NCBI GenBank assembly: GCA_013265495.1
Contig: MU057560.1
Location: 1,781,664-1,845,663, forward strand
Length of the DNA: 64,000 nt
Origin: Vicugna vicugna
Taxonomy: Eukaryota
Direction: 5' to 3'
This document shows, in pieces, positions 5,115 to 61,644 of this stretch (positions within the stretch are counted from its first letter, which is position 1; every line of letters begins with the position of its first letter). The notes below the pieces were generated by a model. The model did no database searches and was not told the DNA's origin. It saw only the letters and a program-made list of their open reading frames with translations. The position numbers and the translations under genes were made by a program.

Positions 5115-5140
5115 AAAGAGGGAAGCCCTGTGGTGCCCCT

Positions 5141-34900: not shown

Positions 34901-35142
34901 GATACAGGTGATGGGCCAAGAAGAAGGGTTTTTCTGGGCCAAGTGGTGACATTAAATCTCACTGACCCACCCCTCCCCCTCCAGGTGTAGTACGCTCGGG
35001 GGACAGAAGAAGGAATTCCAGAGCAACTTAGTCTGAATCATTGTTTTAAAAGTTTATGTCTGGGCACCAAAATATGAAATTCACAATTTAAATATTCCAC
35101 TAGCATGTGTCTGTAGCAATAATGGGGTAAAAAACGCCTAAT

Positions 35143-35148
35143 TTTATT
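35143..35148 (-). terminator. Polyadenylation signal of the minus-strand gene
   Basis: AATAAA about 70 nt after the stop, followed by a U-rich tract (gcgtttttt). Confidence 0.6.
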
Positions 35149-35215
35149 TTCATCTGCTTTATGATCCTTTCTGGCGTCGGACCGTTGCTCTTCACAATAT
35201 GGTGACATTCTGTTC

Positions 35216-35571
35216 TCATGGTGTTTGTTGTTCCATGTGTTCTCCCCAAGGCGTCTGTTCGCGGGACGGTTGTCCCAAGGACGGCCGCCCAGGGGGTCCT
35301 TGCTTGTCCGGCATCTGTTCGCGGGACGGTTGTCCCAAGGACGGCCGCCCAGGGGCTCCTTGCTTGTCCGGCATCTGTTCGCGGGATGGTTGTCCCAAGG
35401 ACGACTGCTGAAGTGATCCCTGTTTCTCGAGGTTCACTTCTGGGTGCTGTGGTGATGACTCTTCTTGTGACTGCTGTCGTGTTGGTGGCCCTCCTTGGTC
35501 TTCTATTTCTACTGGGGTTTCTAGCAGTAGGGGTGTATTGTTTTCCTCTAGAATGCCATTTGGTTCTTTTT
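35216..35571 (-). CDS. Terminal coding exon: E/Q/P-rich disordered tail with 20-aa repeats
   Basis: Acceptor ttttgttttattttgttcacttaaaacaag, phase 1 (E)KEPNGILEENNTP...EQQTP*. Matches the ORF-track frame 35216..35746. Stop TGA at 35218-35216. Confidence 0.75.
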
Positions 35572-38500
35572 CTTGTTTTAAGTGAACAAAATAAAACAAA
35601 ATCACCAATGAACATAGTAGCCATCTAAACCAAGGGAAGCAAATCATACAATGACAAATATTGCTTCTGTACCAGTGATTCCAAAATGACAGGAATAACG
35701 TTAATGAGTCATCCCCTAGGATAGCACTCTTCCAGTGTGCTTTCACACTTTTACTCTCATTTAGAACTACAATTGCTTAGTTGTTTAAAAATTAAAGAAC
35801 CACAGGAAAGACTCCTGCTTTTTCTTCGGGTCCCTGAGGTAGGGGCACTTTTTTATTAACATGAGAAAAAAGAATCAATGCAGAAGAACCCAGGGCCACT
35901 GTTCTCCAGAAGAGGCACCAACAAAGGAAGAACAACCCATCACGTGCAGGATTATCAGCCCCTCATTGGCCAAACCACACTCACCAATGTCAATGCGACT
36001 CCTGCCGTGAAAAACGCCACCTGGCACAGGAAATCAAAGGCTGCACTTGACAACCGAAAACACCACCATTTGAAACAACACATGGAAAGACAGCCTCAGT
36101 TAGAGCTTCACAGAGCCTGACAGGAGCCAGGCACCTCAGAACCCAGCACGCTGACATCTTCCCTTCCCCTCAAGCCCGCCTTGTCTGCAGGAGTAGCCCC
36201 AGACCCTGATTCAGAAACCCCAGCTCCAAATTCAACCCCACCTCTCACAGCCATTCTGGGGCCCAGCCTGGTCCATCCGGTCTGCTCCCAGCAATCTGTC
36301 CCTCCCTCCGCAGCCGCACGGCCGTGCTCCTGGCCTCCGCCATCTGTCACACAGAACGTGTGCACGCACATGACGCTCTGCCTCCCCTGCCCCCCGCCGT
36401 CAGAGTGACACTTTACAGCATCAGGTCGGTCACATCATCTCCCTGCTTTAACATGACCTAGGGGGTAAAGACCAAGACCCTCAGGAAGGCACACAGGGCG
36501 AGGCAGCGACGGCTGCAGACCCAGACTGCACCGCTCTCCCCAGCGCAGAGCTGCCACAGACGGTTCCCGGCCAGCTGCATCCCAGGGGGCCAAATGCCTC
36601 CTTCTGACCAAAAGGCCGTGAGACGCGGAGTCCTCCTCGGGGCTGAGGTGGTGACTGTGACCTCCCGTCTCTCCTCTCCTCCTGCAGTGACCGTGAAGGC
36701 CGTGTGTGGGAGATGGCAGCATCACGAAGCATCACAATTAGGAGGGGAGACACCAAGGAGAGCCTCCCTCTTCAGCAGGCTTGGCATTTATTGTGCAAAG
36801 TCACTGAGACTTGGGGTTGACACCTTCACTGCATCTTGGCCCAGCCGACTCTCACTGACACAACGGACCTTCAGATCTGAGCCTTAGCTGTACCTTCATC
36901 TTCCTCTCACACTGCTCCCTGACACCCTTTTTGTCCCAACTGCACCAAACCAGATGCACACCCTCAATGCAGCACCGCATCTCTGTGCATTTGTGGATGC
37001 TGACCCCCTACCCCACGTCCCCTTCTGGACACTGCCTGCCTGGCAAACTCCCACTGCTCCCTCACAATTCGCTCCAACAACCCTCTCCTGGGCGACACCT
37101 TCTGTAATTCCCTCAGCCTCTCTCCTGACCCTGCCAGACAGCCAGCCATTCTCTCTCGGGGAAGTTTCCAGGGCATCCAATACCAGCCCCTATCTGCTCA
37201 TGCATCTGTGCGGCAGCCCAGTGCAGACGGGCTTCCTGAGAGCGGCACAGCTGATGCCGACTCACACGTGTTCTCTCAACATCCAGGCGGACTCAGCTCA
37301 CAGCCAGCAGCTCCACAGTTTTGTTTTGTTTTGTTATTAAAGAAAAGGTCCAGTGGCATGTGACTGCTGGCCCCCCACCTGCTCTCCAAATGACCTTGGG
37401 CAAATCACCTTCCCTTTCCGGGTTTCAGTTATTTCTGCCTTGAAAGCCAGGCAAGGATGGTCTTTAGAAATGTAAAATTGGGTGATAAGGGCTTGAACGC
37501 ACGCAGTGAACCGTGAAAACCGATACACAGTCGTCCTTGGTGTCCGCAGGGATCTGGCTCCAGGACCCCCATGGGTACCAAACCCACAGTGCTCAAGTCA
37601 CTTATGCCGAACGGCACAGGGTCTGCACGTAGCCTGCACACATCACTGAGAACACCTAATACGATGCAAATGCTGTAAACACAGCTGTACACACAGCTAA
37701 ATACTATGTCAACAGTCACCTGTACGTGGCATAGGAAAGTTTTGCTTTTTGGAACTTTCTGGAATTTTTTCCAAATATTTTTGACCCACAGTTGGTTGAA
37801 TCCACGGATGCAGAGGGCAAATTGTACACGTGCTGTGACACTTATCACATCACATAAAACTGAAGAGCGAAAGATGGGGAGGGGGGTTACGGAAGGAAAA
37901 CTAGAAACTGCCACAGGGTAAGATGTGATTATGCGAAAACGAAAGGCCGAGGCAGCGGGAGCCACGGGGAGCCGACGCTGCCCTGCAGCCCCCAGGAAGA
38001 CCCGGGGCTGCTCCGGCTCACACTCGAGCCCTGCCTCCTTCAGGCCCGTCCTGCACGCTGGCCGACTTCTGCGTACGGCGGGTCTCCCCGCCAGGCCGGG
38101 AGCAACCTGCGGGCAGGGCCCGGGTCGTACTCATCTTGGCTGCAGAAGGCACTCAGAAGTGTCTCATAAATGAAAGAAGGGGAGTTCAAAATAAACGGAC
38201 CAGCAGTCCCCAGCCCCACACATAAAGCATTCCTACAGACGTGCGAAACTAGAGATGGCATTGAGATGTCAAGTGTGTTTACACGAATAACGTATTACTC
38301 TACTGTCCAATATAAAATTACATTAATATAGAATAATGCATGTGCTATATTGATAAGTGATAAAATGCATTTTGAAAACCCCTGCGTTTTAAATGCAATT
38401 GCCGATGAGATATTTCCGGCATTGCATAGTCATTCCATATTGTCTCCTTTCAGAATTGAGCCCATAATCTAACAGGTCCCTAAATGTGGCTGAAAATTTG

Positions 38501-41500
38501 TCACTCCAGCGCACCTAAGAATTTCCATGTTTGTCTGAAGCCTGCACTTCTCAGTACAAGTTTCAGGAGTTCTTTTCTCTTCCCTCTTTTTTTTTTTTAA
38601 CAAAATGTTATAAAGATATATGCAGTAAAATCTTAAAATAATTGCACAATTGAACAAAGTCCGCCGGACGGAACCGCTGGCTGACAGACAGTGTCACCGT
38701 GCGCTGAGTAAAAACCTTCATTTGTCAACCCGCCTACAAACGGTGCCCTACGAAAGAAGGTTCGGAGAGGTCAGCGCCCAGCTAGGGAAGAGTAAGCTGT
38801 GGTTCAAAGCCAGACAAGCCATGAGGACAGCTGCCTCCAGACGGAAGTTCCAGGGTCGCCTGGAGGGGGCGCTACGGGCATTTCCCGGGTAACTCACTGT
38901 GAGCCCGTGAGCACAGACAGGCCCGTCCCCGTCCCACACGTGCCCGTAAATGATCGCCAACAGCCGCTTTCTTACCAGGAAACGGAACCACCTTCTTATT
39001 CTTGCCGAGGTTCTTGAGAGATGCTGAAAAAAGAAAGAAAGAAAAATCCAGGTATTAATAAACCAACCCAGGCGTTCACATACCGTGAGATTTTGGTGCA
39101 AGGTCTCTGGCTAAAGGAATCGCCGGCGTGCGGCGCGCTGCCTGGTTCAGAGAGCACCTGGGCCCCGTCCAGCCAGAGCGCAACCGCGCGTCACTACACA
39201 GGAAGCGGTGCTAACGCCGCGCCAGGCTGTAGTTTCTGAGATTACAGGGCAGCTGGCAGAGCTGTCATCTTCTGGTTTTTCTCCCTCTAAGGAGAAAAGC
39301 ATGTTTCAGTTAAGGTTCTTTTGTTCAACTCCTTCCTCGTGCAGGTTCACAGGGGGACGTCAGGGACACGGGGTGGCAGCCCCTTTCCTCCTGCAGGACC
39401 GAGCAGGTAACAGGGTCTCTCTGGTTAGACCAGCAAACCATAAAGCTCAGGTAGGTGCTGGACGTACGCCACGCACACCGAGAACATGTGGCTCCCTTTA
39501 CACAGCTGCTGCTCATCAGAAACCTCAATAGCAAAGAGCAGTAAAAACAGAATATTCAGTCTCTGATGAAAAATACTATAACTAGAAATGTGTCACTTAC
39601 ATCAACACTTGCAAAGGAAAACAATGCCCGCAAGAGCAATGTGGCTCAATGCAATAAAACTTCCACAGGTCCACCCCCGAACTTCTTCGCTGACAATCCT
39701 GCTTTGATTGCAGGGATTTTAAAGTTCACAGGTGTCTCTGCCAACTCACCAACATAGCACGAACACATCTGTTCTGTCAGAGATACAACCTCCGAGACGC
39801 ACGTGCGTGTCAAGTTTCCGCTGACATAATTAACACAGAAATGTTCTTGTTAATAAGCACTTCAGTTCAACTGAATCAGGAGCCACAGAGCCAGACTGGA
39901 GCCGCTCTGAGGACCTGCCAGTTTGGCGGGTGAGATGGGGAAGGCAGGCAAGAGGAGCTGGGGGTGCTGATGGTCCCGGGAGGAAAGAAACCAACCCCAG
40001 AAGCTGCCGGGAGAGGTGATCGGAGAAATGACACTGCCAACAGCAGCGGCCGGGGCACCTGGAGGCTGGAGCAGAGGAGAAAACATAGAAGAATGAAGGG
40101 TTTCGAGAGAAGGCTGGTTCTGACGGCAACGGTGGGAGGTCAGAGGCCACCGAGAATCACAGCAGCTGGAGGAGGCCAGGAAAACCACTGCCTGTGTCCA
40201 CAAAGAACGCCCCCCACGTGCCTCTGACGGTGTAATGTGACTGCCGCAGGCAGCACATGCTTTGAAGCCTCGTCTTCCTTTGCACTGATTTTTGTGACTT
40301 CCAGAACCCACGGCAGCTGCTCGTTATGAATTAAGACATCAGGCTAAGATTTGTGAAAATGAAGCCAATGTTTTGGTTTAAGGTGTAATTACTTTGTGAA
40401 AAGCTAGAAACCCCAAGTTAGACAGTGTTAGGTTTTTTTATTTGGTAACTATCACACAGGCATCTGATTGCACTGTGGGCCGGCATGTTTTTAAATAAAT
40501 CAGCAAAGATATTTACCAAGTCCTTTTAGGGGATTACAAATTTGATCAAAAAGTGGTTTGAACTGAGATCTCTCCCAGTGGCTCGGAGGTCCCAACCAGG
40601 GTCCTGGAATAACAGACTGAGCTAATGAGAGCTCCTGTGGCCAGGATAGCGTTGTTGTTCTTCTTCAGAAAATCCTAATTTCCTGTATTCAGATGTGTGC
40701 TCGTAACAGAAAATGCCCGGAAAGTGTCTGATGTCTCCACTCCCCCTCCTCCCATGTCTTGGATTGTAACCCCCATCCAGCTTCATGGTCATCTTTCTTC
40801 AGGGACAATCTATTGTGGACGCTGCAAATGACTTCAATGCTGTCAGATCCCAGAGTCAATGAATCAGAAACACTGAACTTGACTGAGTCCTATTATTGTC
40901 CAAATACTACTTTTTTGGAAGACTTAGAGCCCTTTTTTTAAGTGGAAAGGTCCTTAAGAGACTGGTCAATAAACCGTATTCCCACTGTGTTCCCTGGCGA
41001 CCAGGTGGTCCTCAGAGATGTCTCTGGAGGCCAGGGGGAGAATGCCAGGAAGCAGCAAGGGGAAGACTGAATTTCTGCATTTCAGCCCACCCGTGTCCTC
41101 TTCGATCAAACAATCCCTTTTCTCTCTGCTCTGTAGACTGGAGTCCGTCATAACATTCCACTTGGGAAAAATGTCCCAGTGCTTCTTTTAGCTTCTTTTT
41201 TTAAAATAGTTTTAGGTTTACAGGAGCGTCGCGAAGACTGTGCAGAGACTTCTAGTACACTCTTCACCCAGACTCCCCGGAGGGTAACACCTTGCAGAAC
41301 AGTGGGGCCCTGACAGAAGCCAGAACTCACGTCCGGACAATGCTGTTTAATTACGGGCTTTATTTGGGTTTTGCCAGTTTTTCCACCAATGTCCTTTTTC
41401 TGGTTCGGAATCCAGTTCAAGACAGCAGCTCGCATCTAGTTATAGGGTCTCCTCGTCTCCCCCAAACGTGACAGTTTCTCAGTCCTTCCTTGTTTCCCAG

Positions 41501-44500
41501 GAGCTCCTTGGGCATTCTGCAGGGGGTCCCGCGCTGTGTGGGCGGCGGAGGTTTCCTCACGCTCGGACCCGAGTTACGGATTCGGGGACACCACCAGGGC
41601 GTGGGGTGCCCTCCTCCCTGCACCACTCAGCCTCCATCACTCAGGTAGGTGGCGCCTGTCACTTTGCTCTACAACAACGTTTTCTGATGTTTTCTTTCAA
41701 AGACTGAAAACCGGTGACCCTAGGCTTACCTTTTATTTTGCACATAAGAAAAGTAAGACCCAGAAAAGGCTTCAAGTAAGTCATGTTCACAGGCACACTG
41801 AGCAGTAACATCAGTGGGACAAGAACCCCACCAGAAGGAGGCTGTCGAGGAGATGGGGAGACCAGCGACCGCGTCTTCACGGCCTTCTCCTGCTTTAAAG
41901 TTCAGTCGTGTTATAAGCTACTTGTCCTTCTTTTATTCATGTTGGTGAAAACATACGTCTCATTTGAAGGAAATGGAAACTGATTAGGTTGTAGGTATGA
42001 TTCCTGTAAAATCTGCCAAGAAATGCAACAGAAGTACATGGTGAGAGCAGGTAAGAGGGCCTTCTTGGACCCTTCAGTGTTGGCAAATGTTTCAACCCAA
42101 ATGCCTGTTTGGCACAAAGTAACAGTACAATGTCACCTAGAGGTCCAGTCAAAGTCAGGTGAGCAGAGATGGCGGGAAAGGAAAGTAGGACCCTGATGAC
42201 ACTGCAGCACATGCAGAGAACCTGCCCCTGCCCCTGACCCCGAGCCAAGGACGCAGATGCCTCTGCACGACAGGTCAAGACAGACGCGGAGGACCTGGGA
42301 GTCCCAGAGAGCAAGTGAAGAGCGAAGGGTCACCGCCCACGTGTCATGGCGTGAGAGCTCTCGGCACACCTCAGATCACGTTCCCAACTCAGCATCACCG
42401 GGCACGTGCTGCTGATTCCGCAGACGGTGGAGGCACGTTCGGAGGGGTTAAGTGACCTGCTCCCGACTCCACAGACAAGGGGCGGGGCTGGTAGGCGAGC
42501 CCAGAACCCACCTCTACCACACTTTACACCGCACGTATGGCTGAGTTAGATGATTAAGGTTCATTTTAACGCTCAGTTCCTCCTTTTTGCTTCTCCTTTT
42601 CAATTCTAAAATATTTTTTGAAAACAACTGCAAAATATTAGCATCTTCCTTGCAATTTTACTTAACCCGATGACGGCTTCTCCAGGACGGTGTTGGAGGA
42701 GGGCCGTCTACAAGCAGGAGGAATCAGACACACCCTGTGTGTGGCCACCAGGGAGGCAGAGGGGATGGTGCCTTCAGTCCCCAAAGAGAGGAGCGGCCAC
42801 AGAGATCCAGCTTGCTTCATCGTCGCTAAGAAATAACTGTTACAAACCTCAAACGGCCATCAGTCAGGCCAAGATTATTCACCCCAGGAGAGTGCAGAGG
42901 AGCTTCCGACAGATCAGATCCTACACAGGGAGTGGGTTCGCTCTGCCAGCACGAGAAGGCGGGAGAGAGCTGAGGGTCCCGCACACAGCTTGAGTTTCCG
43001 TGGTCGGGGAAGTGTCCGAGGAGAAAGCACGTGGAGCCTTTTCTCTAGAATTATTTGGATCTTGTTCTGTCTGAAGGCAAAGACTCTGGATTCAAACCTC
43101 AAACAGCCCCCTGCAGACTGAAGTCACTGCTCCCACAGCCCGAGTGGCCATGGGCTCGCATCCGCCCACCGCTGCCCAGTGTCGCGCTCCCGGGCCCTCT
43201 GCCCAGACTCGGCACCGGCGGCAGCTAGGCGGGGCGGACCCGCCACACACACTCGTCAGTCTAGAAGAGACCCTGGGAAGGGCGGGACCACACGCGGATT
43301 TCACAAACTCAGCCCGACTCAGTGCCTGAAGGGAGCTCGGACTGACGCAGCCCTGGTCTGGTCAGCGCCGCGCGTCCCCTGGGCGCGCGCTCAGCGCCTA
43401 ACCCGCTGTCCCGTGGCAAAGCCAAGCGTCACTTCACGCCTAAGTACAGGAGCGCGGAGTGTCACCAAATGGACTCGTCAAAACATGAGCCTCTCAAATA
43501 ACAACACTTGTAACTCACAACATGGGAAGAAACGCCACCCGGCTGGGTCACCGCCTCCCCCGTGTCTGGGAAGCTTCCAGATGCGCTGCTGGGTGTGCGG
43601 GCACCCACAGCACCAGGCCGGGGCGCGAGCCGCCAGGCCAGCCGCAGCCATTGGTTTTCTTTCACTGTTCCTCGTCCTCAGGTAAAACAAGACGCTCACT
43701 CGGTGGAGTAACTTTCTGCAGGGTTAACATCCTTAACTGCAGACCAGCCTTGCTCTCCCAAGCCCCCTGGCGTTACTGTTAGAGTGTCTGATTTTAGACT
43801 TCAGTTACTAGTTTTCCACGCCTGCTTATGAACGGTCGGCTTCTGCAAAGAAAACGTGACTTCCGTTTACAAGGGAAGCTGAGACATGCTTAATTTCCCA
43901 GGGCAAGCCTGTCTCCTGGAGCAGAGGCTAATCTACTGTCCACCTGATGGGAAGAGAAAAGGGGGGCCCTCCCTCGGGGTGGGGGCACTCCGAGGGCCGA
44001 GACCCTGAATCCCAGAGAGTCACCATTCTGGCTCAGGACCCGGCTGGAAACCGCACGGACAGCAGGGAGGTGAGCAGGACAGCGGCCTGGCTCAGGCACG
44101 TGAGTCTGCCTGCTCTACCCCGTGACAGAAAATGAGAATTAAAGAGCAAACCCCAATGATTTTGTTAGACAGGCTGTTACCGCAAATCAGAGAGGCTCTC
44201 AAAACAGGCGGCGCCCAGGAAAAGCATGCGAAGCTCTGGCATGCTTTTTTTTTGTTTTAACTTATTCTTTGTTTTTCAACAGGCAGGTGGGGATGGGGGG
44301 ATGCAAATGGAACTAAGAAAACAGTTTGGGTTTTTTTTTTCAGCCACAATGTGCTTTGAACCAAAAATATGTTGATGAAAAAGGCAAGGCAGACACTGGT
44401 CTGCGTCCTCCACCCTGGACAGGGCCCCCCTGCCTCCTGGGCCCTGACCAGCATCACCCGCCAGCAGCTCTCTGAACGGCGATCCATGACAGACCACCCC

Positions 44501-47500
44501 TGAGCCAGGCTGGTGTATGATTGTTGGGAAAAAATGTTAAAAAAATCATTTTTACCGATTCCTAAATTGCCAGATTGTCTAAAACCACAGCAAAAAGGAA
44601 AAAAAAGAAGACGTCAAATGAGGGCTTCAAGCAGAGTTCTTCGAACCTGGCCAGGCCACACCTCGCGGTCCTCATGCTCACAGCGCACAGAGGAACCGAA
44701 CGCCCAAGAGACCCGCTTGTGCCTACCCTGCAAAAACAATTTTTAAGCCAATCCGCCTGGCCACTGGACAGTGAGGGACTGTTCCTGTGACTTTGCCCCT
44801 GGAACTCTGAACGCTCAGAAGCAAAGTAGCAGGTGGAAAAATCACAGTGGAAAAAAAAATGATTTTCTTTCCTGATTCTTTTGTCCCTTCTCTTTGAATA
44901 GCCCTCCACGTCCCAATTCCCCAAAACAAACAAAAATAACTGCAACAGAACACAGCCAAAAATATTTCCCAGGGAGGGAGAAAGAGAGTGTTACCGCTTG
45001 GAATTAAACTTCAGGGACGTAAAACTGCCTCTTTCTCCTAGAAAAATGAAACTAGCAAACTCACCCAAAATATAAGATACTGCAATGCTTCGGAAACAGT
45101 GGCTGCAACTGGTAGGAACTCCGGGATTTCTAAGCACCTGATCCTATAAAGGTGGGGAGGGCGGGTGGCCACTAACAGCCTCGAGTATTTGGGAGGAAAG
45201 GTAACATTTTTTAAGCGAGGTGTGAAATGGGCTCATTCGCTTCTCCCAAATTTGTGTTGGGTCACAATTGCTGGCGGCCTCGGGCTGTCGGACCCCAACA
45301 GGTCTGTGTGACAGGCTTGAGTGGGACACTGCTCGGAGAGCTTGGAGGCTGTGACTGACCCCCAGCGCTACCCGGTGGAGCCCAGAGGTGTCCTGGCCGC
45401 TCAGAAACAACCCAAAGGGGCCCTAACGTCACTCACCACTCCTCGCCGGGCGCTCGGTGCTGGTGTTACTGACAGACCCCCCGCAAGCCCACACTTAGAG
45501 GGCCTGGGCCATGGCTGAGCGGACAGGGCCACGGCTGAGCGGACCCCCACCCGGCACCCGGCACCCGGCACCCGGCACAGCGGCCCTGCTGGCAAGAGGG
45601 GAGAGAGGGAGGGAAGTGGGTTGGCTTGAGTTTCTGCCGTTCCCTCCATCACCTCTGCCACCAAGGACAATGCGGGTCATCATTCTGGCTCCTCTCTGAA
45701 ATGAGGACATCACCTGGCAAGGTGGTTAAAAAGAAGATAAAAATCAGAAGGAAGGGTCCATCTGCGGAATGCGCACGTATTTTTAAATGGTTGTTACGGC
45801 AGATGGTTCAATAGACATTCTGTACACTTGAGGCTCAGGAAAAGCCAGCAGCATTGAATGGGTTCTTTTTAAGTCCTTGGGACCTTGACTGCAGGGAAAG
45901 GGCCCAGGAGAGGCTGAAGGGAAGGTGGGTCAGACTCTGCCCACAGAGACTTCTCTCCGGGTGACCTGTCACCAGAAGAGCATCCTTCTATTAAAAACCA
46001 AAGAACAGAAAAGGAAAGAGAAGCAGGGGGTCAGACCATGTCCTGAATTGAAAGGACACGCGCGGCCGACTTACTCGTGATGCCTGACAGGTCCCTCTCT
46101 GGCCCCTGGGTGGTGATCTGGGGCCAAAGTGTACGTCTGCCTCCCTGTGGTGCAAACACCACATTCACATTTTAACACCTGGGGGATCCAGTTTCTAAGC
46201 ATCTTTTCTTGAAAACAAACAAACAAAAAGTCTCTGACCATCTGGCTGGCATTTGTGAATGATGATTTTTTTCTCTTAAGTTACCGGGAAGAGTAGAAAA
46301 TCAAAAGGTAGACATTCCCCAAAATTCAACGGAAATTCTATTTCCCTGACATTCAATGGAAACTGTCATGGAATGATTTTGATTGTGGGGACATTGACAA
46401 TCCTAATGAAATGTTAAAGCTGAAACCTGAAATGTCGTAACGTGGGGTCGGCCTGAGTGAGCCTGTCTTCCTCAATTAGCCTTCCCTCCCCATCCACAGA
46501 TGAGAAACGGTCTGAAAGGTCACTTCCCACAAAGGACTCTCTACCGTCCTGTAGCCTGAAACCCCAGAGAGCCACCCCTCCTCTGGCCCTGCCTCGCTGG
46601 TCCCCCGATGCCACCCCACCCCGCTCCACGGTGGCCCTGCGTCCTGGAGCCACGTCAGACGCCCGTGCTCTCCGGCTCCGCAAAAGGTCTTCAAGCTGTT
46701 CCTTCAGATCTCTCTTCTCTTCAAGGCTCCCCTCAGGGCTGGTTTAATCTAATTTTACCCACGTACAATTGTTAAGAGAGTCAGCTACTGAGACGTGAGA
46801 GCTGACCACCTGCCCTCGGGACTTGGGAGCCGGGCCTCGTCCACCTCCTTCGGTGCTGGTGGGGACCCCATCCACCTCCGCAGGGACGAACACCCCTCCT
46901 CTCCTTGCTTCAGGGGGAACAACCTCAGGGCCTCACACAGAGTCCCCGGAGGGAGGGAGGGAGGGAGCCACACAGAGTTAGAGAGCCCTCACTACTGGTT
47001 AATCTCACAGGACGCTCCTCTCTCATCGGACTGTAACCACCACACTTCAAAGAAAAAAGCAGGGCTGCAGGTGCTTTGTCTGGGGATGGAATTACATCCA
47101 AAGGGCACACACGTCACGGCCTGAGATCTGAGCCTCGGTTCGGGGCTGTGGAATGAACTGGAGGGCGTCCATCCCTGCCCACAGATACACCACCTTCGGG
47201 CCTCGGAAGACACACCCTGGGAGGGAGGTTCTGCTCCAACACTGCAAGCTCAGTAGTGCAGGAAATCACTCTGCGACCTGGGAAGGAGGCCACCCTCCCT
47301 GTGCCTCAGCCTCCTCACCTGCGAAACACCCAGCTTACGTAGCACACACACAAGTGGCTAACACGTCCGTTGTTCACAGTTCATTTATGATTATGAATAA
47401 ATAGTTATGAAAAATTTAGAAAAGGAATTCACAGTTTGTGGTATTATTACCAGCGTTTTGTGGGGGGCAGGAAGTCAGACCTTTTCTCTATCACGTGTCC

Positions 47501-50500: not shown

Positions 50501-53500
50501 TACAGATACTAACTACTACATATAAAATAAATAAACAACAAGTTCATATTGTATAGCACAGGGAACTACATTCAACATCTTATAGTAATTTATGGTGAAA
50601 AAGAATATGAAAATGAATATATGTATGTTCATGTAAGACTGAAGCATTATGCTGTACACCAGAAATTGACATAACATTGTAAACTGACTCTACTTCAATA
50701 AAAATATTTTTTTAAAAAAAAAACAGAAACAGCCCGACACAAATCTGGTCAGTTGGTTATGGAAAATGTGCAAAGAAATGAAATGCAGAAAGGATCGTCT
50801 TTTCAACAAATGGTGCAGGAACAGGTAGACCTCCATATGCAGAAAGCAAAAAATGAGCCTCATTCCACACACTGAGCTGCATACAAAAATCCACTCAAAA
50901 TGCATCCTGGACATAAACGTCAGCCATAGCCACCAAGCTTCTAGAACGAAACATCGGGGAAAATCTTTGAGACTTTGGGTAGGGCACAGAGCTCCCAGCT
51001 ATGACATGAAAAGCACAATTTATAAAAGAAAAACTGGTAAATTGGCCTTCATCAAAATTAAAACTTCTGCTTGTCCAAATACAATGTTAAGAGAATGAAA
51101 AGAAATGCCACATACTGGGGAAAAAAAGTTTGTGAAACACATATCTGAAAACTCATTTGTGTCTAGAAGACGTAAAGAACTCACTCTTGACACTCAATGA
51201 AAAGAAAGCAAACAAGCCAACAATAAAAACGAAGGCAGGAGGTGTGAATAGACCCATCCCCAGAGAAGACACGTGGGTGGCAAACATGCACGTGGAAAGA
51301 TGTCATCGCCACTGGTCACTAGGGGACTGCAGAAGAAAGTCACAGACGAGGCACAGCTTCAAAACAGGCAGAACTGGGTTTTAGCTGACCAGACAGACTG
51401 CAGGCGAAGCTGCAGACCCTGAAACGCTCGTGCGTCACGTGGGACTGCGCAGCTGTCCTGCTGCTTAGGGAACATCTGCCAGCTTCTTACAAAGTTAAAC
51501 AAGCATTTACCACGTTTCCAAACAACTCCACTCTGAGATATTTACCTAATCTGTACATGAATGCTCATAGCAGTTTTACTCAGATTCTCCAGAACCTGGA
51601 CATAACCCAAATGCCCTTCAACAGTTGAGTGGATAAACAGGCGGTGGACAGCCGTGCAATGGAACACTACTCGGCATTAAAAAGGATGGCTGGTCAGTAC
51701 ACACAGGAGGGAGGGAATCCCAGACGGGTCACAGCGAGTAAGAGAAGGCAGACTCAGAAGAGCACACGCTGCGCAGTCCCGCTGTACGACACTCTGGGGA
51801 AGGCAAAGCCTTCAGACAGAAAACAGGCCCGTGGTTGCCAAGGCCGGGGGGTCGGGGGGGTGACCGCAGAGGGATGCAAGGGACCAGCAGAATGGACGCT
51901 CCACACTTGACTGCGCTGGTGGTTCCCTGACTGTCTGTGTTGCCCGAACTCCGGGAGCTCGCCAGTGAAAAGGCAAGTTTTCCTGTATGTGAATTACACC
52001 CCAACTTTTAGACAAGAGGTGAAACACTGACTCAAGAAGGGAACAGTGCCGTGAAGTGGAGGGTCGGGTCGTTCTTCCTGCCAACAGAGTTATAAAGCCA
52101 AAGAAACATTACAATGACTAGAAACAGCTCTGCAGGCACTGGAAAGCACCAAAGGAAGCCAGGCCGTGATGCGGGTCTGCTGTTTGCAGGCTGCTGTGGT
52201 CTCGGACTCTGTCCCTCTCAGGCCTGAGGGAACCCCTCACCCACCGCAGCCTTTCGGCTCAAATCGGCCAATGACGTCTCAGAGCAGGTGAGCATCTGGA
52301 AGTTTAAGGGGAAGTCTTGGAAGTGAGGAAGGCGCAGAAGCGCTGAGACCCAAAGCCTGGCCTGCCCTCGCTCCCCGCGACCTGTGCGCCCGCACACATT
52401 TGCCAAAACCCGTCCAGCCCCAGGGCAGGGAGTCACACCTCGGCAGCGCTGCTGAAGACAAGCCAGCTGTGGAAGGAAACCGCACAGGACAAGACACTAG
52501 GGAGCCAGCCCACCCACCGCCTCAGGCTCTGGGAAGCGGAGCGTGTGAGCTTTCTTTGCAAGGTAAGGGGCAGCAGACCCCGGGCTCACAGGGGCACTGG
52601 AGCAACACCCCTCCTCCGAGCCACACCAGGCCGGAAACGTCACTTACCCAGGAAAGAGCTGAAAGCGCAAAGACAAAAACATTAAAAAAGTGCCCGGAGT
52701 CCACGTGGTGAAATTTACACACTGTCGCCGGGAAAGCCCTCAGGGTCTCCCCCGGAGCCCCGAGCACAGTTCCGGAAAGCCGCGCTCCGCGGGCCTCCCT
52801 GCCCCGAGCAGAAGCCGCGGGTCGGGGAGGAACGAGGGAAGCCGCTAGGGGCAGGCAGAAGGCAACAGGGGGCAGGAAGAACGACAAACCAGACGGGAGA
52901 CCCCAAACAGCGCAGCAGGCAGGCGCCGCCCTGCACAGGGCCCAGCGCCCGCGGACCTCAGTCATCTCTGAAGACACCGAGCAACGCAGCAGAGACTCGC
53001 CCACCGCGCGCAAGACGCCGGTGGGCGCGCCAGGAGCCGGGTTTTGAAAAACGAAGAAAGCGTGGCTTATCTGCAGAGGCACCTACATACGGAAAATCAC
53101 TTTACAAAGCTCATCATTGCTTAAAAATGAGAGCTAAATGGGTATTGCTGTGTTTGCATTTTATCAAACTGCTCTCAGGGCCGTTCGGTTTGGCGCGCGG
53201 CCTCATTGACAGAGTGTGGTAAGCAACCTGTAGGTCCTTATCACCACCTCGAAGATTAAACATGAAAAATCTACCTGCCAAAGCCCATCCTTCAAAGTGC
53301 CATAAAATACTTCCCAAGACATTTCACAGGCACGCTGGGCTGAAAACACAGGCACGAGATACCATATTCTGTCTCTGCCATTTTCCAGGGGTCACTGGCC
53401 GCTGATATGAGGCAGCGCTAAGGAAGCGTCTCCTTGGATCTTGCTCCATTACCTCTAAAGAAACAGATTCTCAAAAATGCCAACTCAATCACAAAGAATG

Positions 53501-56500
53501 GGGAAAATAGAGTGGAGGCACCGTGTCTTCCTTCATATGCATACTGACTGATGCTCTGGTACCTTCTGCAACGAGGGATCTGACTCATCTGAGCCGATAC
53601 CCAGAAAAACGGGGCTCGACCCTGCTCCCAGCACACACACTGCCCCTCCAGGGCTCGTCCTGGATTCCTCTGATCCGTTTATGCCATTCCTGGGCTAACC
53701 CACCCATAGCTTCCACCCTCTCATCCCAAACGCCTTCGGAGAATAAGCAGAAAGAATAAAAGGTGTGATCAGCCTGCACGAGAGGTCCTGAGGTTGGGGT
53801 CGGGATGGAACACTCCGGGGAAGGTATTTGGGGCTGTCTTTGATTTTCAGTTATCCACGTTATTGAGAAGGGGAAAAAAATATGTGAACTCTGTACATGT
53901 CAGTACGTGAATTTATCTCTAGTTTATATTCCCAACTTTTAAAAAACGATCTAGCCTTGCCAAAACAGACCTAGAAAGGAAGACTCACTGATATTTCAGT
54001 AGAAGGTAGACTGGCCCTCAACCTACATTGCAAGGCTCTGAGACCAGAATGAGGGCGACAGGGAGAATTCTCACCATGGAGACTTCCTCAGTTACAAGCA
54101 CACTGTAAGCATAGCCCGGGCAGACGGAATTTGAAACCACCTTAAGACCATTTTTTTAAGTGTCTGTTATAACAATGAATTTCTTTCTTATATTGAATGC
54201 ATTCTCTTCTCCTTTCTAAAGGATAAAGGAAGTAAGATATTTTGGCCAAAATGCCTACTTTGGCTGTCAAAATTATTTACTGGGAAAAGGATAGGATTTC
54301 AGCTGATACTGGTCCTGCAATCATTCTGACCTCTTGGAAAAGCCAAGTGCAAGCCTGTAAGACACTGTTTCCAGAAACAGATCTGCTCCGCCGAGTTCTT
54401 CCCTCATGGACTCACGGTTATTCTTAGAGTCTTTAAAACTCCGACACGAGAACAACAAAGGCAGGAGATAAAACAAGGGGCCACTTGTGGAGCAGAACAG
54501 GGAGCAGCCGTCGGCGGAGTCAAAGAAAGAATTCAGGGAGATGGGGCTCTTTTCTGAAAACAGAGGGAACTTCGGTTGCGGAGACTGAAACCAGAAGGAT
54601 TTCCTACCGCTTTGTTCTTAAACAGTTCAGGACTCTGGGGTTTTCCTCTCTCTTCCATTAAAACATCTGAAAGAGAGAGAGATTTCGACCCTTGCTTCAA
54701 TGTCTACCCCCTAAAACGTCAAACATTCGCCAGTCCCCAGTTACCCCGTGAGCCCCTCTGGGAGCCCAGGCTCCGCCGTCCCGGTTCCAGGCTGCCAGGG
54801 GGTGTGGGGTCTCCATCCTCAACGAATCTGCGGTGACCCTAGTGGCCGACTCACACGCATGGAATGCATGCGAAATGAGACGGCGCCGAACTACACGTGC
54901 AACTGTCAACACGGAGGACTTCAGAAGCTGCCAAAGTGCAGAGAGGACAAGGCTGGCTTCACAAGGCTTGGTGGGGACGGTAAGTTTCGAGCAGAGCAGT
55001 GACAGTTAATGGGGCGTAAACAGAGTCAGGAGGACAGTGTGAGGCCAGGAGTCGACCAAGGTCGAGGCAGCGGGAGGGAGACGCGAGCGAGGGTGCCGGG
55101 AGGAACTCAGGACTGAGCAGCTGGGCGCGGAGGGGAACAGAGGGAGGAGGGGCAGGCACCGCTCTGCCTGCTCAGGGCGACGGGAAGCGCCATCCACGGA
55201 GAGCAGGATGAACTCTGGGCTCGGGACGCGCCTTCCCGGAGAGGGAGCAGGGCGTCCACACCGAGACGCGGGCGCTCAGACGTCACGGGGCTCTCCACGC
55301 TATGGGAGGTCCGCAAGAACTGAAGCCAGGAGAGACTCCAGCCCGGGCCAGGGGCGCGGGGCAGAGACGGGCCCAGAGTGGGAGGCGGAGGTATTTTGGA
55401 AAATATGGTCTTTTTCTTTCATGAAAAATATGCTATTTATATGAGTTATTGTGGCTATTTTTAAATAAATAAATAAATGGTTTTAAATTTCCCAGTTTCC
55501 ATTCCTAGCACAGTAACGACCGACAGCTATAGCCCACCAAACAAAAGCCCTTTGTGGCCTCAGTCACATTTAAGTGTATAAAGGGGTCCTGAGAACAGCA
55601 AGCTTGAGAGCCATCGCTCTGAAGTGTTCATCAGAATCTGACAGAGCACCCCTGAATGCGCCCGGCACGTCACAAACACAGGCGCCCGCGTGTTAGTTCT
55701 AACGTTGGCACCCTCAGCCTCTCACCACTTCATGCATCAGGCCTCCAAGGCCCGAAATAAACTCAGCCACAGCCTCCAAGCTCACCAGTTGCAAGGATGC
55801 TCTCTGAACTACAATTAGGAGAAAGAATCCACTCTATAGATAGCTTTTATTATTTTAATTTGTTTAATCTGATTTTTTACTTTTATTTGCTTACTTTTAT
55901 ATCTAGCAAGCAAGAACAGAAACTCTGCATGAAAAACACCGTCCTAACCCCCTTCCCACACGGAGCCTCCCCTTCCGCCTGCCTGCAGCCTTCCCACCGG
56001 GCACAGCAGCGCGGCCATTGCTTAATCGGATGACAAGTCTGCATCTCATTGCATCTTTCTGTGTCTCAACTTTGCAGTCTTTTTTTTTGTAATTGAAAAA
56101 TTATTTTTATTTTTTCTCAAAATGGTAATTATTTCCATGACGTCAGGGTTTTCCTTACAAATTTTTTAATACAGAATAACTCATCTTGCTTAAAAAAACA
56201 CACAAAATTGATAAAGACTACTACCCCAAAAGCACAAAATATTCCGTCAAACAATTTAGACAGCAAGTTACAAAATATCAAATTGACATGCATCCAGTAG
56301 GTAAACAAACTTTGCACTTAATAACTGACTTTGCACCTAATGATCACTGCACTCTTAAAATTACCTCTGTTCTACTTGCCTCTTTTTTTTGTGGACATGT
56401 TTTAATTTTTCTTGGGTAAATACCTACATATAAAATAGACTAGCAATATGGTAACTTGATGGTTAACTTTTTAAGAGACTGCCAAACTTTTCCGTTTTTT

Positions 56501-59185
56501 TTTAGTTTTTTTTAACTGAAATACAGCTGATGTACTTTAAATGAGTTACAGGTCTACAGTACAGTGATTTATCATTTTTAAAGTATATACTCCATTTGCA
56601 GGTGTTATAAAATCCTGGCTATATTCCCCATTGAACTTTGCAGTCTTTTGCCTGAACAGATAACAAACGTGGAGTATACCCCCACTGGGTATTTGGAATT
56701 GGTTAGAAATATTTCTAATGTGACACGGAAATTATAGAAATTACAATATTGAAAGAAGCCAAGAGATGTTTCCATTTCCTCCTCAGTCACATGGAAGGAC
56801 TGGAGAAGACTCCTTCCTAGGGGTGCTTCTGGCTCAGGATTTTACGGTCCCACAGACCCGGGGTACTCCACGCACAGCCGGCCAGGCAGGGGCCGGCCAG
56901 GGCAGGGGCCTAACGCTGCGGGTCTAACACAGGCTTATTATCAGTCGTAGACGTGTGGACTTTGTGACGCCGGCTTGGACTGCGGTGACAGAGGATGTCG
57001 CACCAGCTTCTGATACAGAGGACGGAACCAGAGGACGTCTGGGAGCACTTCGCTGCACCCAAACACACGTGCAGTTTGCTAAAATTCACACAAGCCTGTG
57101 CCTACAATAGTTACAATTTGTGAGATGCACTGCTGAATGCATTTCATTGCAGTGTAAATCTGCCTTCTGATATAGAACAACTTCAGCAAGGCCTGTCTCT
57201 TCCTGCTCGTTCTATTTCCAAGCAGAAATGTGAGTTTTATTTATACAACTATTTTTCGCACTGCCATGGATTCGCCTTCTTCAAATATCAAAACAGACCA
57301 ACCCTGAAGATGGGAAAATAAGAAACACGCGTGACCTGAGTCGATACCACACAGCCCCGCGGACGGCCTCTCCGCGCAGTCTCAACAGCAGACCAGCTCT
57401 GGGCCGCAGGGACCCTGCCATTTCTCGTCTTGGCGCTCCCTTGGGCAAAAGCTGCCGGGCTCACAGGAGACACGCAGAATCAGGTAAAAAGGTCCTGCAC
57501 AATCTCATTTGTCAACTCGAAGTGCCCGTGGACTTTCCAGCCCCTTTCATTTTCATGTTTCTGATTTCCTTTCCTCTGAACTACTCATGGGAAAATACAC
57601 ATTTTTGCTCCAAAATGTGGCTATCAGTTTCAGGTAGCTAAGTAATAAATAAACCTAAAAGGGCCTTTCCAGAATGCGGTGCAGGCAGCCCGTAAAGGTT
57701 TCTCATGCACCTTTCCCAGACATGAGAATTTCAAATGTTACTTTTTGTTTCCAAAAATTGTATTTATGGCCCTGGCTACGTTATATAGACCTAAACCCTG
57801 GGTTCTCTGTACCTGACAAGAACACTATGGACCGACCACAGACATTCTCATAATTTAAAATAATTCATATGTTTTAAAAGTTATAGGTAGCATCTCTTTG
57901 ACATAATGTGGAAAACCAAGCAAATATGAACAAAACGCTTTCCTTTTGTTACTGCAATGGTCTGTGTAGTAGTTGGTCATATTCTAGTAAAACCCTCCAC
58001 CCGAGGCAACAGCAGTGCGATCAGACGACCACACACGGAGAACAGAAGCGGCTGGTGCCCCCCCATCCAGGCCAGACTCACAGCCGGGGGGACACACGCT
58101 GGTCTGAGCAGTAATTCCTCCTTTCTCGGCGCCTGTTCCTGCTACTTGCGCATGAGCCCCCCCACCCGCCACCCCGTGGAGGCACTCCTGCTGACACTTC
58201 TAACTAAGAGTCTGGTCAAAGCAAAATCCCAGGGCTGTTCTTGCCTGTGTCCCGGGGACGCACCAGTGAGAGCTTCGTTCATCTGCTTAAAATTGATGTT
58301 CTATAACACATAATCCTGTGGACAACTGGTGAATGAGAAAAACAGACTGATGGATGGACGGCCGGACACAGGCTGGTGTGGAGCATGCACCTGCCTGAGC
58401 ACCCGGCTCCACATCCCCTCCCCTCCCTTCCACAAAGTCAAGGTCAAGGAATAAACTGAGCCCATCAGACAGACAAAGAGGGCCTGATCCCAGAGCACTG
58501 CCAGGATTCCGCCCTCTGCCCCGAGGCAGCGGCTGAGAGAGCAGGATGGTTTGCTGGAAGAGCCGCGGGGCCGGCAGCCTGGACTCAGGGGCCGCGGCAC
58601 ACACAGGCCTGGGAGGGGCGGGGATGGCCAGCCCCATGGATGCTGGAAGAACTGAGTCCACTGGAGAAGGGGAGCTCAGAGGGCGTCGTGGGTCCTCAGC
58701 CTAGAAACCAGGAGCAAAGGTACGGACGCGTCCAGGACTGGCCCCAGGACTGACCTTGTCTTCTAGATTTACTGAGGTATGTGACGGTCAAGACCATATA
58801 TATTCAGGTGGCACAACACCGTGTTTTCTAAGGATGATTCAATAGATGTGCGCATCCTGAACCAATTCCAGCAATCAGGTTAGTGAATCCGTCCATCACC
58901 TCGCATCGTCGCCTTGTTCTGGGGGTGCTGAGAACACTTGAGATCTATTGTCTCAGCGAATTCCAAGTGGACAGCACGGTGTGTTAACTGCAGTCACCAC
59001 GTGGTGCAGAAGACCCCCGAGCGTGTGCCTCCCATAACTTGCTGATCTTTCACGGGCTATTTCTCTTGGCCAGACTGGACCCATTTCATCTCCTCCTTCA
59101 GGTCCCTAAATGCGATTTCTAAAACTGGCAAGGATTCAACAGAAGTAGAGCCCACCAGATGAAAAGATAAGATTGGTTCGTCCAT
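35216..59185 (-). CDS. Uncharacterized multi-exon protein-coding gene (whole coding span; about 300+ aa; 5' exons uncertain)
   Basis: Exons 47702-47639, 45713-45653, 45143-45065, 44578-44556, 42012(or 42003)-41957, 41841-41730, 39820-39750, 39023-38976 and 35571-35216 all have AG/GT ends and compatible phases. They give 870 nt with no internal stop: EDNSRMSFKKKFPLRHNTKEKGDVLISERSQNDDPHCPWWQRIRCLEIPEFLPVAATVSEALQYLIFWTIWQFRNRFYRNHTYNLISFHFLQMRPSFWWGSCPTDVTAQCACEHDLLEAFSGSYFSYVQNKSGNLTRTCVSEVVSLTEQMCSCYVASLKNLGKNKKVVPFPEKEPNG...QQTP*. Upstream microexons extend the frame. AATAAA follows the stop. Confidence 0.7.
35250..35403. repeat. 60-bp coding tandem repeat, about 2.6 copies
   Basis: Consecutive 60-nt sequence lines are nearly identical (gcatctgttcgcgggacggttgtcccaaggacggccgcccagg...); encodes the EQMPDKQGxPGRPSLGQPSR unit. 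Confidence 0.95.
37528..37827 (+). mobile_element. MER2-type Tigger MITE (preceded by MIR at about 37370-37520)
   Basis: cagtcgtccttgg..ccaggacccc..tgctcaagtc..cagttggttgaatccacggatgcaga. Confidence 0.8.
38976..39023 (-). CDS. Internal coding exon, 48 nt (ASLKNLGKNKKVVPFP)
   Basis: Very strong acceptor tttctttctttcttttttcag and donor CTG|gtaaga; phase 1-1, in frame with both neighbours. Confidence 0.8.
39750..39820 (-). CDS. Internal coding exon, 71 nt (SGNLTRTCVSEVVSLTEQMCSCYV); alternative acceptor at 39773
   Basis: Donor TTG|gtgagt; acceptor aattatgtcag is moderate. An internal ctctgacag acceptor would give a 24-nt exon. Confidence 0.6.
41195..41650 (-). mobile_element. L1MC-type 3' end
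   Basis: agttttaggtttacagg..cagtttttccaccaatgtcctttttctg..gacagtttctcagtccttccttgttt. Confidence 0.8.
41730..41841 (-). CDS. Internal coding exon, 112 nt (PSFWWGSCPTDVTAQCACEHDLLEAFSGSYFSYVQNK)
   Basis: Acceptor tccccatctcctcgacag, donor AAG|gtaagc; phase 1-2, open. Confidence 0.65.
41957..42012 (-). CDS. Internal coding exon, 56 nt (or 47 nt from 42003) (RFYRNHTYNLISFHFLQMR)
   Basis: Acceptors ttgcatttcttggcag and ttttacag lie 9 nt apart in the same frame; donor GAC|gtatgt; 115-nt downstream intron. Confidence 0.6.
44556..44578 (-). CDS. Coding microexon, 23 nt (TIWQFRN-R)
   Basis: Long polypyrimidine tract cttcttttttttcctttttgctgtggttttag, donor TCG|gtaaaa; phase 0-2 exactly bridges the flanking exons. 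Confidence 0.6.
45065..45143 (-). CDS. Internal coding exon, 79 nt (IRCLEIPEFLPVAATVSEALQYLIFW)
   Basis: Acceptor cctccccacctttatag, donor TGG|gtgagt; phase 2-0. Confidence 0.7.
45653..45713 (-). CDS. Internal coding exon, 61 nt (GDVLISERSQNDDPHCPWWQR)
   Basis: Strong acceptor ttttatcttctttttaaccaccttgccag, donor GAG|gtgatg; phase 1-2. Confidence 0.6.
47639..47702 (-). CDS. Internal coding exon, 64 nt (EDNSRMSFKKKFPLRHNTKEK)
   Basis: Acceptor ggtttctgtttcag, donor AAG|gtatgt; only frame 0 is open. Confidence 0.7.
48190..52012 (+). mobile_element. Composite old L1 (L1MD/MC/MB-type ORF2 3' half and 3'UTR), decayed
   Basis: tcaatagatgcagaaaaatcgtttgacaaaattcagcatccatttatg, ttttcaacaaatggtgc, cccaaatgcccttcaacagttgagtggataaac. 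Confidence 0.9.
50353..50725 (+). mobile_element. Younger L1 3' end nested in the old L1
   Basis: Complete terminus with A-tail; TSD gaaacagccc at 50343-50352 and 50726-50735. Confidence 0.9.
52648..52658 (-). CDS. Coding microexon, 11 nt (P-LSW)
   Basis: Acceptor ttttttaatgtttttgtctttgcgctttcag, exon CTCTTTCCTGG, donor gtaagt; ends in phase 0, matching the next exon. Confidence 0.6.
54416..54430 (-). CDS. Candidate coding microexon, 15 nt (D-SKNN-P)
   Basis: ttttaaag|ACTCTAAGAATAACC|gtgagt; phase 1-1. The acceptor is imperfect, with another AG 8 nt upstream. Confidence 0.4.
55390..55617 (+). mobile_element. hAT-Charlie1-type 3' end
   Basis: aaacaaaagccctttgtggcctca..aaaggggtcctgaga..ttgagagcca. 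Confidence 0.7.
55786..55808 (-). CDS. Candidate coding microexon, 23 nt (or 18 nt from 55803) (SESILAT)
   Basis: ttctttctcctaattgtag|TTCAGAGAGCATCCTTGCAACTG|gtgagc. Confidence 0.45.
56084..56633 (-). mobile_element. TSD-flanked retroposed insert: L1 3' end plus about 400 nt of extra sequence and polyA
   Basis: Perfect 16-bp TSD aactttgcagtctttt at 56068-56083 and 56634-56649; T-run at the left end; AATAAA (minus) at 56106-56111. Confidence 0.85.
58762..59040 (-). mobile_element. L1MA-type 3' end
   Basis: tttactgaggtat..ccatcacctc..gagaacacttgagatcta..ttaactgcagtcacca. Confidence 0.75.
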
Positions 59186-59192
59186 GTCTGTT
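59156..59192 (-). CDS. Candidate first coding exon (ATG at 59185, MDEPILSFHL)
   Basis: gttttataatag|AACAGACATGG...CATCTG|gtgggc; Kozak G at -3 and G at +4. Linkage to downstream exons (possibly via the acceptor at 57303) is unresolved. Confidence 0.3.
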
Positions 59193-60279
59193 CTATTATA
59201 AAACATCAGCTCAACACCTCCTGCTTTATTAATGAAGAGTATTACGCAGAATACATGTCTGCAGTTAAAGCTAAAGCAGCTCTTCTAGTCTAAAGCGAAC
59301 ATCCCCCTTTTTGCTTGAATCCAGATAAATCTCCTACGTGCAGAGGAATCCGAGCTTTGTTTCTAAAGCCACATAATTCTCTAAAATATTTGTTTCTTAA
59401 CATTTAATTCACCAAATCCTACTCAGCAGTACTGATGACCTCCACTTAGCTTTTGAGACTCCAATGTTGATCAATAGTAACCTTGTCTCTTAGGGAAGCA
59501 ATAAAATACTTAGCTGCAGTGACAGAGTAGCATTAAGATAATAAAACGAAAAGAATAGTCAAGACACTGGGCAGGCAATGAATTCCAAAAATCAATGAAA
59601 GAATCAATGCCCTTTTCATTTTGTCACAAAAATCCTGAGTCAGAGACAATGCTGGATCAAAACCCCCCTGGCTTCGCTGGCATTTCTGGCAATGCTAATT
59701 AAATGAACCCCTCTCCTGCTGGCCTGACGGAGCAGGCAACCAGAGTAAATCACTGTTTGTTATGGATCTGCGAGCGCACTTGATTTCGGCAAGATGCTTA
59801 AGTGGTGTTTTTGTCAGCAGCTGCAGGCGATGGAAAATGCCTTGTGTTCCGAGCCCGGCATTTGTCAAGTATGTTAAACCACTTACATATGATTTATGTC
59901 AACTGATATAAACCATTACTTTGATTATTTTTAAAAAAACGTTTCACTGCGTTATCATTCATTTTACAGCTGGAAACACAACAACGCGTCACTTACGTGA
60001 CCTTGTGTGAGGTGCGCGCCCCCCAGCCTCAGCCGCCCTCTGGAAGCAGGGGCTCCGACAACGACCAGCCCGGGTCTCCCTAAACTCCCCGTCCGATGAG
60101 GTTTCGGGCCACAGCATGATTTGGGGTGGAGTCATAATGACCAAAAAAACCACAAAATAGAACGTGACTCTTTTTTTAAGAAAACAAGCACAGAACACCG
60201 ATCGGGGCCGGACCCCCTGCTCCCACCTGTCCTGCCAGAAATACCACAGGGTTCTATTCCGTCTCCCAGGTGTCTTGCT

Positions 60280-60360
60280 TTGCTGACTCCGCCCAAAAAT
60301 CGTATTGTGTTTTGAAATTGCCAGTCTTTCAGCACATGAAACGCTGAAGACTAACGGCTG
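60280..60360 (-). promoter_or_regulatory. Candidate germline/cell-cycle promoter elements (GC box, CHR-like TTTGAA, MYB site TAACGG)
   Basis: CCGCCC 60289-60294, TTTGAA 60311-60316 and TAACGG 60352-60357 lie upstream of a CAC|gtaagt donor at 59997. Confidence 0.3.
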
Positions 60361-61630
60361 TGAGAGGCCAGTCTCTCCCTTACGCCCAGTTCCAGCCCTA
60401 GAAGGCCCAGGCTTGTTCGGTTAAGAATTCCGTCAACAAGTCAGCGCTCCTTGAGCAGAAGACTCGGCCCTCACGCTGGGAGCTGCCACCCGGCAGGAAA
60501 AACAAACAGCGGGCATGTGAGAGGTTTGCTGAAAAACGTGAGAACACACACAAAGTAACTCGGGGGGAATGAGGGGGAAAGGCATGAGTGAAATAGCACA
60601 ATTGCTGAAGAAAGAGAACATGAAGAAATGACCAGGAAGGGCAATTTAAGAGGCTCTTGGAAGAGGGGACTCGTGAACCAATTAGAGGCAGGGCATTAGG
60701 ACAGAGTGGAAGACGAGGCACCAGAAGTGACAGCTGAGAAGCTGCATTTCTTCCGGAGAGGGAGGGGGGCGGCCCTCCAGTCCGAACAGAGTGTGGGGTC
60801 GGGGAGACACGGGACCACCAGCACCCCACGTGAGGCTGCGCGCTCATGCACGGTGAGGCCAGCCATCACCTGAAGGCGCACCTGCTCCCCCATCTCACCC
60901 AGGCACTGCTCCTTCTGGTCCAATGGCCCAGCACTATTAGCAGCATTCCTGGGCCGGAAGATTGAACTACGAGTCCACCTCAGACCGAAAATGCATGCTG
61001 CGCACACAAAGGGTGCCTGACACTAATTCTAGCCTCGGGCGGTCACCTGCAGACAAAATGACCCCCAGTGGTCCACTGTCACATCAGACGCTAGACAGCA
61101 GGCTCTCAATTTATACTTATGTTCTACATGTTTCCATTTATAAACATCAAGATTTTAACAGAACAAGCGACACTCGAGTATACATTTTCTTTTAAGTTTA
61201 CATTTGTCCCAAGGAATAAATTTAAACAGACATGAGCTCTTGTCCTGTGTTGCTGGGTAATTTTTCTCTCTGGCTTTTCCAGTGGGCTAAATTGTAGATG
61301 CTCCAAAGGCAGACAAAACCTGCTATTCTTCCATCACAGGGACAGGACTGAACACATGATGCCCAACAGGCTTTGAGGTTTGGTCCAGTGCCGCCTTCAA
61401 CATGCGTCTGAAGGGACTTCAACTGGATCTAATCACACAAAACACTGTCATAAAACAAATGTTCCCCTACAAGGTGATGGAGTATTTCATACGTCAATGA
61501 ATATATATGCTAAAAATCTTATCTAAGAAATGTTTTACTGATAGCACACTTACTAGTCAAATTATACTTAATTTTTGGAGCGTTTGGAAAAAGCATGCAC
61601 AATTATCATTTCATCTTTGTGCCAGAACCT

Positions 61631-61644
61631 GTCACTATGGCAAC
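61631..61644. promoter_or_regulatory. RFX X-box-like motif
   Basis: GTCACTATGGCAAC resembles the X-box palindrome GTTGCCATGGCAAC. Confidence 0.35.

Follow-up and report, generated by a model that had tools for sequence, protein, structure and literature searches.

Does this stretch of vicugna DNA hold an unannotated gene built of microexons, or part of a gene that already has a name? The question concerns what we call the window, the whole 64,000-nucleotide stretch that was analysed, and in particular its minus strand. A sequence-only reading had proposed a microexon-rich gene here, with nine core exons that join into 870 nt of open frame and three more microexons upstream, and had taken its product for an unrecognised protein that has a Cys-rich domain and a repeat tail and is perhaps a type II membrane protein. 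Comparison with known proteins leads us, with high confidence, to a different answer. Positions 35143-47702 of the minus strand appear to be the 3' end of a known gene, and the remaining microexons of the proposed chain appear to be chance segments of its intron. That gene is DCDC2C (doublecortin domain-containing protein 2C). The locus is thus already known under a gene name and is an ordinary find.

Which evidence identifies the gene? The last open frame, at 35776-35216 on the minus strand, ends in a peptide rich in glutamine, glutamate and proline. We compared this tail peptide with 5.8 billion proteins, in a search limited to longer proteins, and obtained five matches among 307 candidates. 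All five are DCDC2C proteins: those of horse and donkey (isoform X3), otter, mink and rhinoceros. Four of them carry that name, and the rhinoceros entry, labelled 'hypothetical protein', is doublecortin domain-containing according to UniRef. The top match is horse DCDC2C, with an E value of 3.5e-40 and 64% identity over 92% of the query. A protein search thus gives a clear match to a named gene, and the product can no longer be called unrecognised. When the five homologues were mapped back to the window, they marked out three exons in order on the minus strand, designated A, B and C. Exon A was found with four of the five, exons B and C with all five. In four homologues of this set A, B and C follow each other without anything in between.

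If the window holds only the 3' end of DCDC2C, where is the rest? Horse DCDC2C was compared with the whole 2.03-Gb vicugna assembly, in which the window occupies positions 1781664-1845663 of its contig, and gave 10 matches. Six of these lie in order on the contig and strand of the window, running from residues 1-99 of the horse protein to residues 346-463, which correspond to the last exon; exon A aligns with residues 309-345. The other four matches, at 35-51% identity, fall on other contigs and are evidently paralogues. Residues 1-99 match a site about 68 kb upstream of exon A, beyond the window. Here vicugna has its own exon 1, on the same contig and strand and collinear with the exons of the window, and it encodes a Pfam DCX domain (PF03607; minus strand, E value 4e-20, 72 bits against a cut-off of 22). 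Its best database match, among 120 matches listed of 183, is alpaca DCDC2C with 97% identity. The names DCDC2C or doublecortin domain-containing apply to nearly all of these 120, apart from a few that are called 'hypothetical protein' only or are nameless. By these comparisons the locus appears orthologous to DCDC2C, and not to the paralogues DCDC2 or DCDC2B.

By homology, the exons of the window also appear to encode, together with the DCX part, one continuous protein. In the proteins of horse, donkey, otter and mink, and in cattle isoform X2, a single chain links the DCX domain to A, B and C; alpaca isoforms X1 and X2 extend into A and B. Three more exons upstream of A were located by homology (Table 1). 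Since the nearest of them and the DCX-bearing exon both lie upstream of the window, 47703-64000 and 39024-47638 are intron in the long isoform. The predicted DCDC2C product at this locus is about 500 residues long, and its start and DCX domain are placed outside the window.

Table 1. Features of the DCDC2C 3' end in the vicugna window, with exons lying past its end given in window-equivalent positions.
Feature	Positions	Strand	Basis and remarks
Exon three before A	72847-72743 (window-equivalent)	-	Homology, in the 10 kb past the window end
Exon two before A	69088-69020 (window-equivalent)	-	Homology, in the 10 kb past the window end
Exon just before A	64932-64891 (window-equivalent)	-	Homology, in the 10 kb past the window end
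Alternative exon, 115 nt	50253-50367	-	C-terminus of alpaca X3, 38/38 residues identical (50367-50254)
Exon A, 64 nt, holds SFKKKF	47702-47639	-	Homology; tttcAG acceptor, GTATGT donor
Alternative exon, 133 nt	46075-46207	-	Strong acceptor, long pyrimidine tract, GTAAGT donor
Unsupported segment, hydrophobic stretch	45065-45129	-	0/121 listed proteins, best E 15
Unsupported 23-nt segment (TIW...)	44556-44578	-	0/121 listed proteins, best E 60
Unsupported segment, NHT	41957-42012 (starts 42012/42003, ends 41981/41957)	-	0/121 listed proteins, best E 2.9
Unsupported 112-nt segment, SCP and CAC	41730-41841	-	0/121 listed proteins at E<=1e-3, best E 0.39
Unsupported segment, NLT, TC and CSC	39750-39820	-	0/121 listed proteins, best E 2.4
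Exon B, 48 nt	39023-38976	-	Homology; all-pyrimidine acceptor tract, GTAAGA donor
Read-through of exon B donor	38872-38975	-	C-terminus of alpaca X1, X2 and X5; stop 38874-38872
Last coding exon C, 356 nt including stop (35218-35216)	35571-35216	-	Homology; acceptor AG 35573-35572
60-nt tandem repeat, 2.6 copies, 96% matches	35250-35403	-	Encodes 20-residue repeat
3' UTR	35143-35215	-	Poly(A) signal AATAAA at 35148-35143

Exons A, B and C were then judged against a wider set of 121 DCDC2C proteins, consisting of the five from the tail search and, for the rest, of proteins from the 120 listed matches (of 183) to exon 1. At E<=1e-3, exon A (21 residues) is matched by 41 of the 121 and exon B (15 residues) by 32 in the frame of the long isoform, with 12 further proteins of the set matching B in an alternative frame. 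The tblastn match of exon C spans 35572-35249, with an E value of 2e-29. The splice sites of all three exons are canonical and their phases agree: A leaves one base, B takes two and leaves one, and C takes two. The AATAAA signal reported after the last exon is indeed there, 68 nt past the stop codon. A spliced coding gene with small exons is thus supported, its exons A, B and C being conserved; a separate gene with a start of its own finds no support. What had been read as a basic N-terminus, marked by SFKKKF, is really internal exon A of the roughly 500-residue protein.

What is known of this gene? DCDC2C is described as a DCX-superfamily member with an origin in placental mammals (PMC1550402). 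It appears on a list of flagellum distal-tip proteins in which its function is given as unknown (PMC6281473). It is reported as a sperm-flagellum protein under tree-wide positive selection in Peromyscus (PMC11662088), and as a protein found in human sperm, with a link to motility (PMC13515645). The suggestion that the gene might be expressed in testis fits what these publications say of DCDC2C.

The tail encoded by exon C, one of the features first noticed in the bare sequence, is real. It comprises about 118 residues, is acidic as well as rich in glutamine, glutamate and proline, and contains 2.6 copies of a 20-residue repeat. Homologous tails occur in 43 of the 121 listed DCDC2C proteins, from many mammalian orders, at 29-66% identity to vicugna. 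These 43 proteins contain between 0 and 8 'L[GR]Q' units, and vicugna has 3. Exon 1, in contrast, retains 66-97% identity across its 120 listed matches (of 183), which argues that the tail evolves faster than the DCX domain and that its repeat number changes between mammals. The description of a fast-evolving protein accordingly holds for the tail and agrees with the publications on DCDC2C. Pfam assigns no family to the tail; it would probably form a disordered projection on a microtubule-bound DCX part.

Does vicugna make the isoform that carries this tail? Splicing at the 3' end of DCDC2C would select the C-terminus, as suggested by gene models of other species and by products computed from the vicugna sequence. 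Joining A, B and C would yield the long repeat tail, the outcome seen in horse, donkey, otter, mink and cattle isoform X2. Exon A is 64 nt long, not a multiple of three, and skipping it would send B and C into another frame with a stop after 23 residues. Such a short end (38976-39023 joined to 35551-35571) is present in the 364-residue models of Camelus bactrianus and C. dromedarius and in 12 of the 121 listed proteins. Reading through the donor of exon B would give a third end: 46 of 50 residues computed from vicugna are identical to the corresponding alpaca terminus, and the stop is at the same place. Inclusion of the 115-nt exon upstream of A would give a fourth, with exon A contributing the last two bases of its stop codon; it looks like a premature-stop ('poison') exon. 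The 133-nt exon in the A-B intron matches 12 predicted DCDC2C proteins (E<=1, best 4.7e-8), from Peromyscus, Mastomys, Rattus, Dipodomys, Microcebus, a rhinoceros and one nameless record. In vicugna its inclusion after A is computed to bring a stop inside exon B. In the same intron, 39134-39184 (minus strand) has a weak match (E value 0.004, 9 of 17 residues) to the A-B region of kangaroo-rat DCDC2C isoform X3, and may be another alternative exon or merely conserved intron.

Could vicugna use only the short ends annotated in camelids, with the frame of the tail kept open merely by descent? The long tail is present in none of the eight camelid DCDC2C models of the alpaca cluster, and no camelid is among the five matches of the tail search. 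Besides the ends already described, alpaca X4 has a different one without a match in the window, and the C. ferus model, marked as low quality, ends in the third frame of exon B. Gene models are predictions, however, and often miss isoforms. The 118-codon frame of the tail is intact in vicugna, the 60-nt repeat preserves it, and exons A, B and C retain canonical splice sites and phases. Cattle, from the nearest order sampled, has A-B-C plus the tail in isoform X2, and the presence of the tail across many mammalian orders points the same way. We therefore regard exclusive use of short ends as unlikely, and think that vicugna probably makes the long, repeat-tailed isoform. As this isoform looks intact here and is absent from the eight camelid models, their annotation could be mended. 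The tail isoform is of minor interest for work on rapidly evolving sperm-flagellum proteins.

What, then, are the other microexons? The proposed chain can in part be rebuilt: exon A, the five unsupported segments of Table 1 in descending order of position, exon B and exon C join in phase and without stops. This eight-exon chain measures 762-795 nt and holds SFKKKF, the hydrophobic stretch, SCP, CAC, TC, CSC, NHT, NKS, NLT and the tail; NKS straddles the junction of 41841-41730 and 39820-39750. The ninth exon is ambiguous, since 59 different in-frame inserts extend the chain to 870 nt. Open as the chain is, only A, B and C are supported by homologues. The hydrophobic stretch, the six cysteines and the sequons are present as letters, but all come from the five extra segments, and these sit within the A-B intron. 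A tblastn search with the 121 listed DCDC2C proteins against the window found nothing on any of the five. Their peptides are 7-36 residues long, which limits the power of such a homology test, yet exons A and B, with 21 and 15 residues, passed it easily. The three microexons proposed upstream of A likewise appear to be without support: a sensitive tblastn search of 47601-64000 with four homologues recovered exon A only (E values 0.055-0.066), the rest being noise with E values of 1.7 or more.

The cysteine-bearing segment was searched further. Pfam gave no family for the frame of 41841-41730, and the 57-residue open frame around the segment had no match among 10 word-search candidates. With HMMER, the 36-residue peptide returned a single match (E value 8.9e-4) from 1.84 billion representatives. 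The matched entry contains a seven-fold repeat; each unit shares about 11 of 31 residues with the query and aligns one of three cysteines, and we rejected the match as a sum of chance similarities. An origin of the extra segments in an interspersed repeat was also rejected: the sole multi-copy element in 39700-45200, judged on the best 40 of 101 candidates, sits at about 41183-41506, clear of all five segments. At least 39 further copies of this interspersed repeat, 68-89% identical to it, occur in the genome.

Might one or two of the segments nevertheless be rare, lineage-specific cryptic or alternative exons of DCDC2C, in a chain that is otherwise unreal? The most plausible candidates are 41841-41730 and 39820-39750, whose splice sites are decent and whose donors match the consensus at eight and seven of nine positions, respectively. 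The A-B intron does contain a conserved alternative exon, at 46207-46075, as well as the stretch 39184-39134, which weakly resembles predicted isoforms of other species, and DCDC2C has many predicted isoforms. Against this, none of the segments occurs in the 121 listed proteins, nor in the C-termini or window matches of the eight camelid models. The interval from A to C contains 5,947 AG..GT segments of 6-112 nt, so that a few good-looking pairs of splice sites are expected by chance. We accordingly consider such cryptic exons very unlikely. A camelid-specific isoform that splices some of the five intron segments between A and B is still harder to credit; if true, a microtubule-binding sperm protein would carry a hydrophobic and six-cysteine insert ahead of its repeat tail.

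How much weight does an open, phase-consistent chain carry in itself? By dynamic programming with exact junction codons, we counted about 9.9e19 stop-free chains that lead from A to C through seven intermediate exons. The reverse complement gave 1.4e19 and three shuffles gave 2.3-3.3e19. Since the controls yield similar counts, the openness of the chain is no evidence for a gene. The result is a caution of some generality: short open AG..GT segments chained over a 12-kb intron will produce about 1e20 stop-free 'genes', and homology or RNA support is needed before a phase-consistent chain of microexons can count for anything.

The boldest reading, a separate unannotated microexon gene or full isoform encoding a type II membrane protein with an anchor, a six-cysteine glycosylated segment and the repeat tail, has on its side the open eight-exon chain with all its motifs, some good-looking splice sites and four RNA runs of one study (labelled reproductive system) that contain 25-29% of 44 sampled words of 35130-35600, shares that do not count as evidence of expression and concern an exon common to DCDC2C anyway, and we hold it to be exceedingly improbable, because A, B and C belong to DCDC2C, the other five segments lack homologues among the 121 listed proteins, family or candidate matches for the cysteine segment were not found in the Pfam and word searches above, and some 1e20 chains are equally open, with similar counts in controls. 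The details of the chain weigh in the same direction. One exon would be just 23 nt long, with five of nine donor consensus matches; the donor of the 42012 segment matches at two or six of nine positions, according to the end chosen; the 45129 acceptor is preceded by a purine-rich ...caggtgcttAG; and the hydrophobic stretch includes a glutamate and is split across two 'exons'. The putative membrane anchor and the cysteine pattern are found on none of the supported exons, and the searches with the cysteine segment gave no family.

A few observations concern other parts of the window. Downstream of the poly(A) signal, residues 661-694 of a muntjac DCDC2C model, 712 residues long, weakly match 25568-25675 (minus strand; E value 0.015), which probably reflects over-extension of that gene model. 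The maximum of G+C content in the window (0.586) lies at 4001-6000, where several long open frames without a Pfam family occur on both strands; this may be the CpG island of a neighbouring gene. Of the window's 97 longest open frames, 30 were compared with Pfam and gave no family; Rfam and tRNA scans over the window were likewise empty.

How does the DCDC2C locus of vicugna compare with known systems? To a type II membrane glycoprotein with a Cys-rich ectodomain it has no likeness that rests on supported exons; the hydrophobic, cysteine and sequon motifs that evoked one are confined to intron segments without a homologue. The camelid gene models resemble vicugna closely, in exon 1 (97% identity to alpaca) and in the presence of A and B in alpaca X1, X2 and X5, but differ from the long isoform in ending early, through read-through of B, the 115-nt exon or the frame shift that follows skipping of A. 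The long DCDC2C isoforms of horse, donkey, cattle, otter and mink, on the other hand, show the same A-B-C order, the same phases and the same kind of tail, with its 20-residue repeat rich in glutamine, glutamate and proline. The vicugna tail is 56-64% identical to those of horse and cattle, and its exon A is 95% identical to that of cattle. The number of LGQ units sets the three apart: 3 in vicugna, 8 in horse and 1 in cattle.
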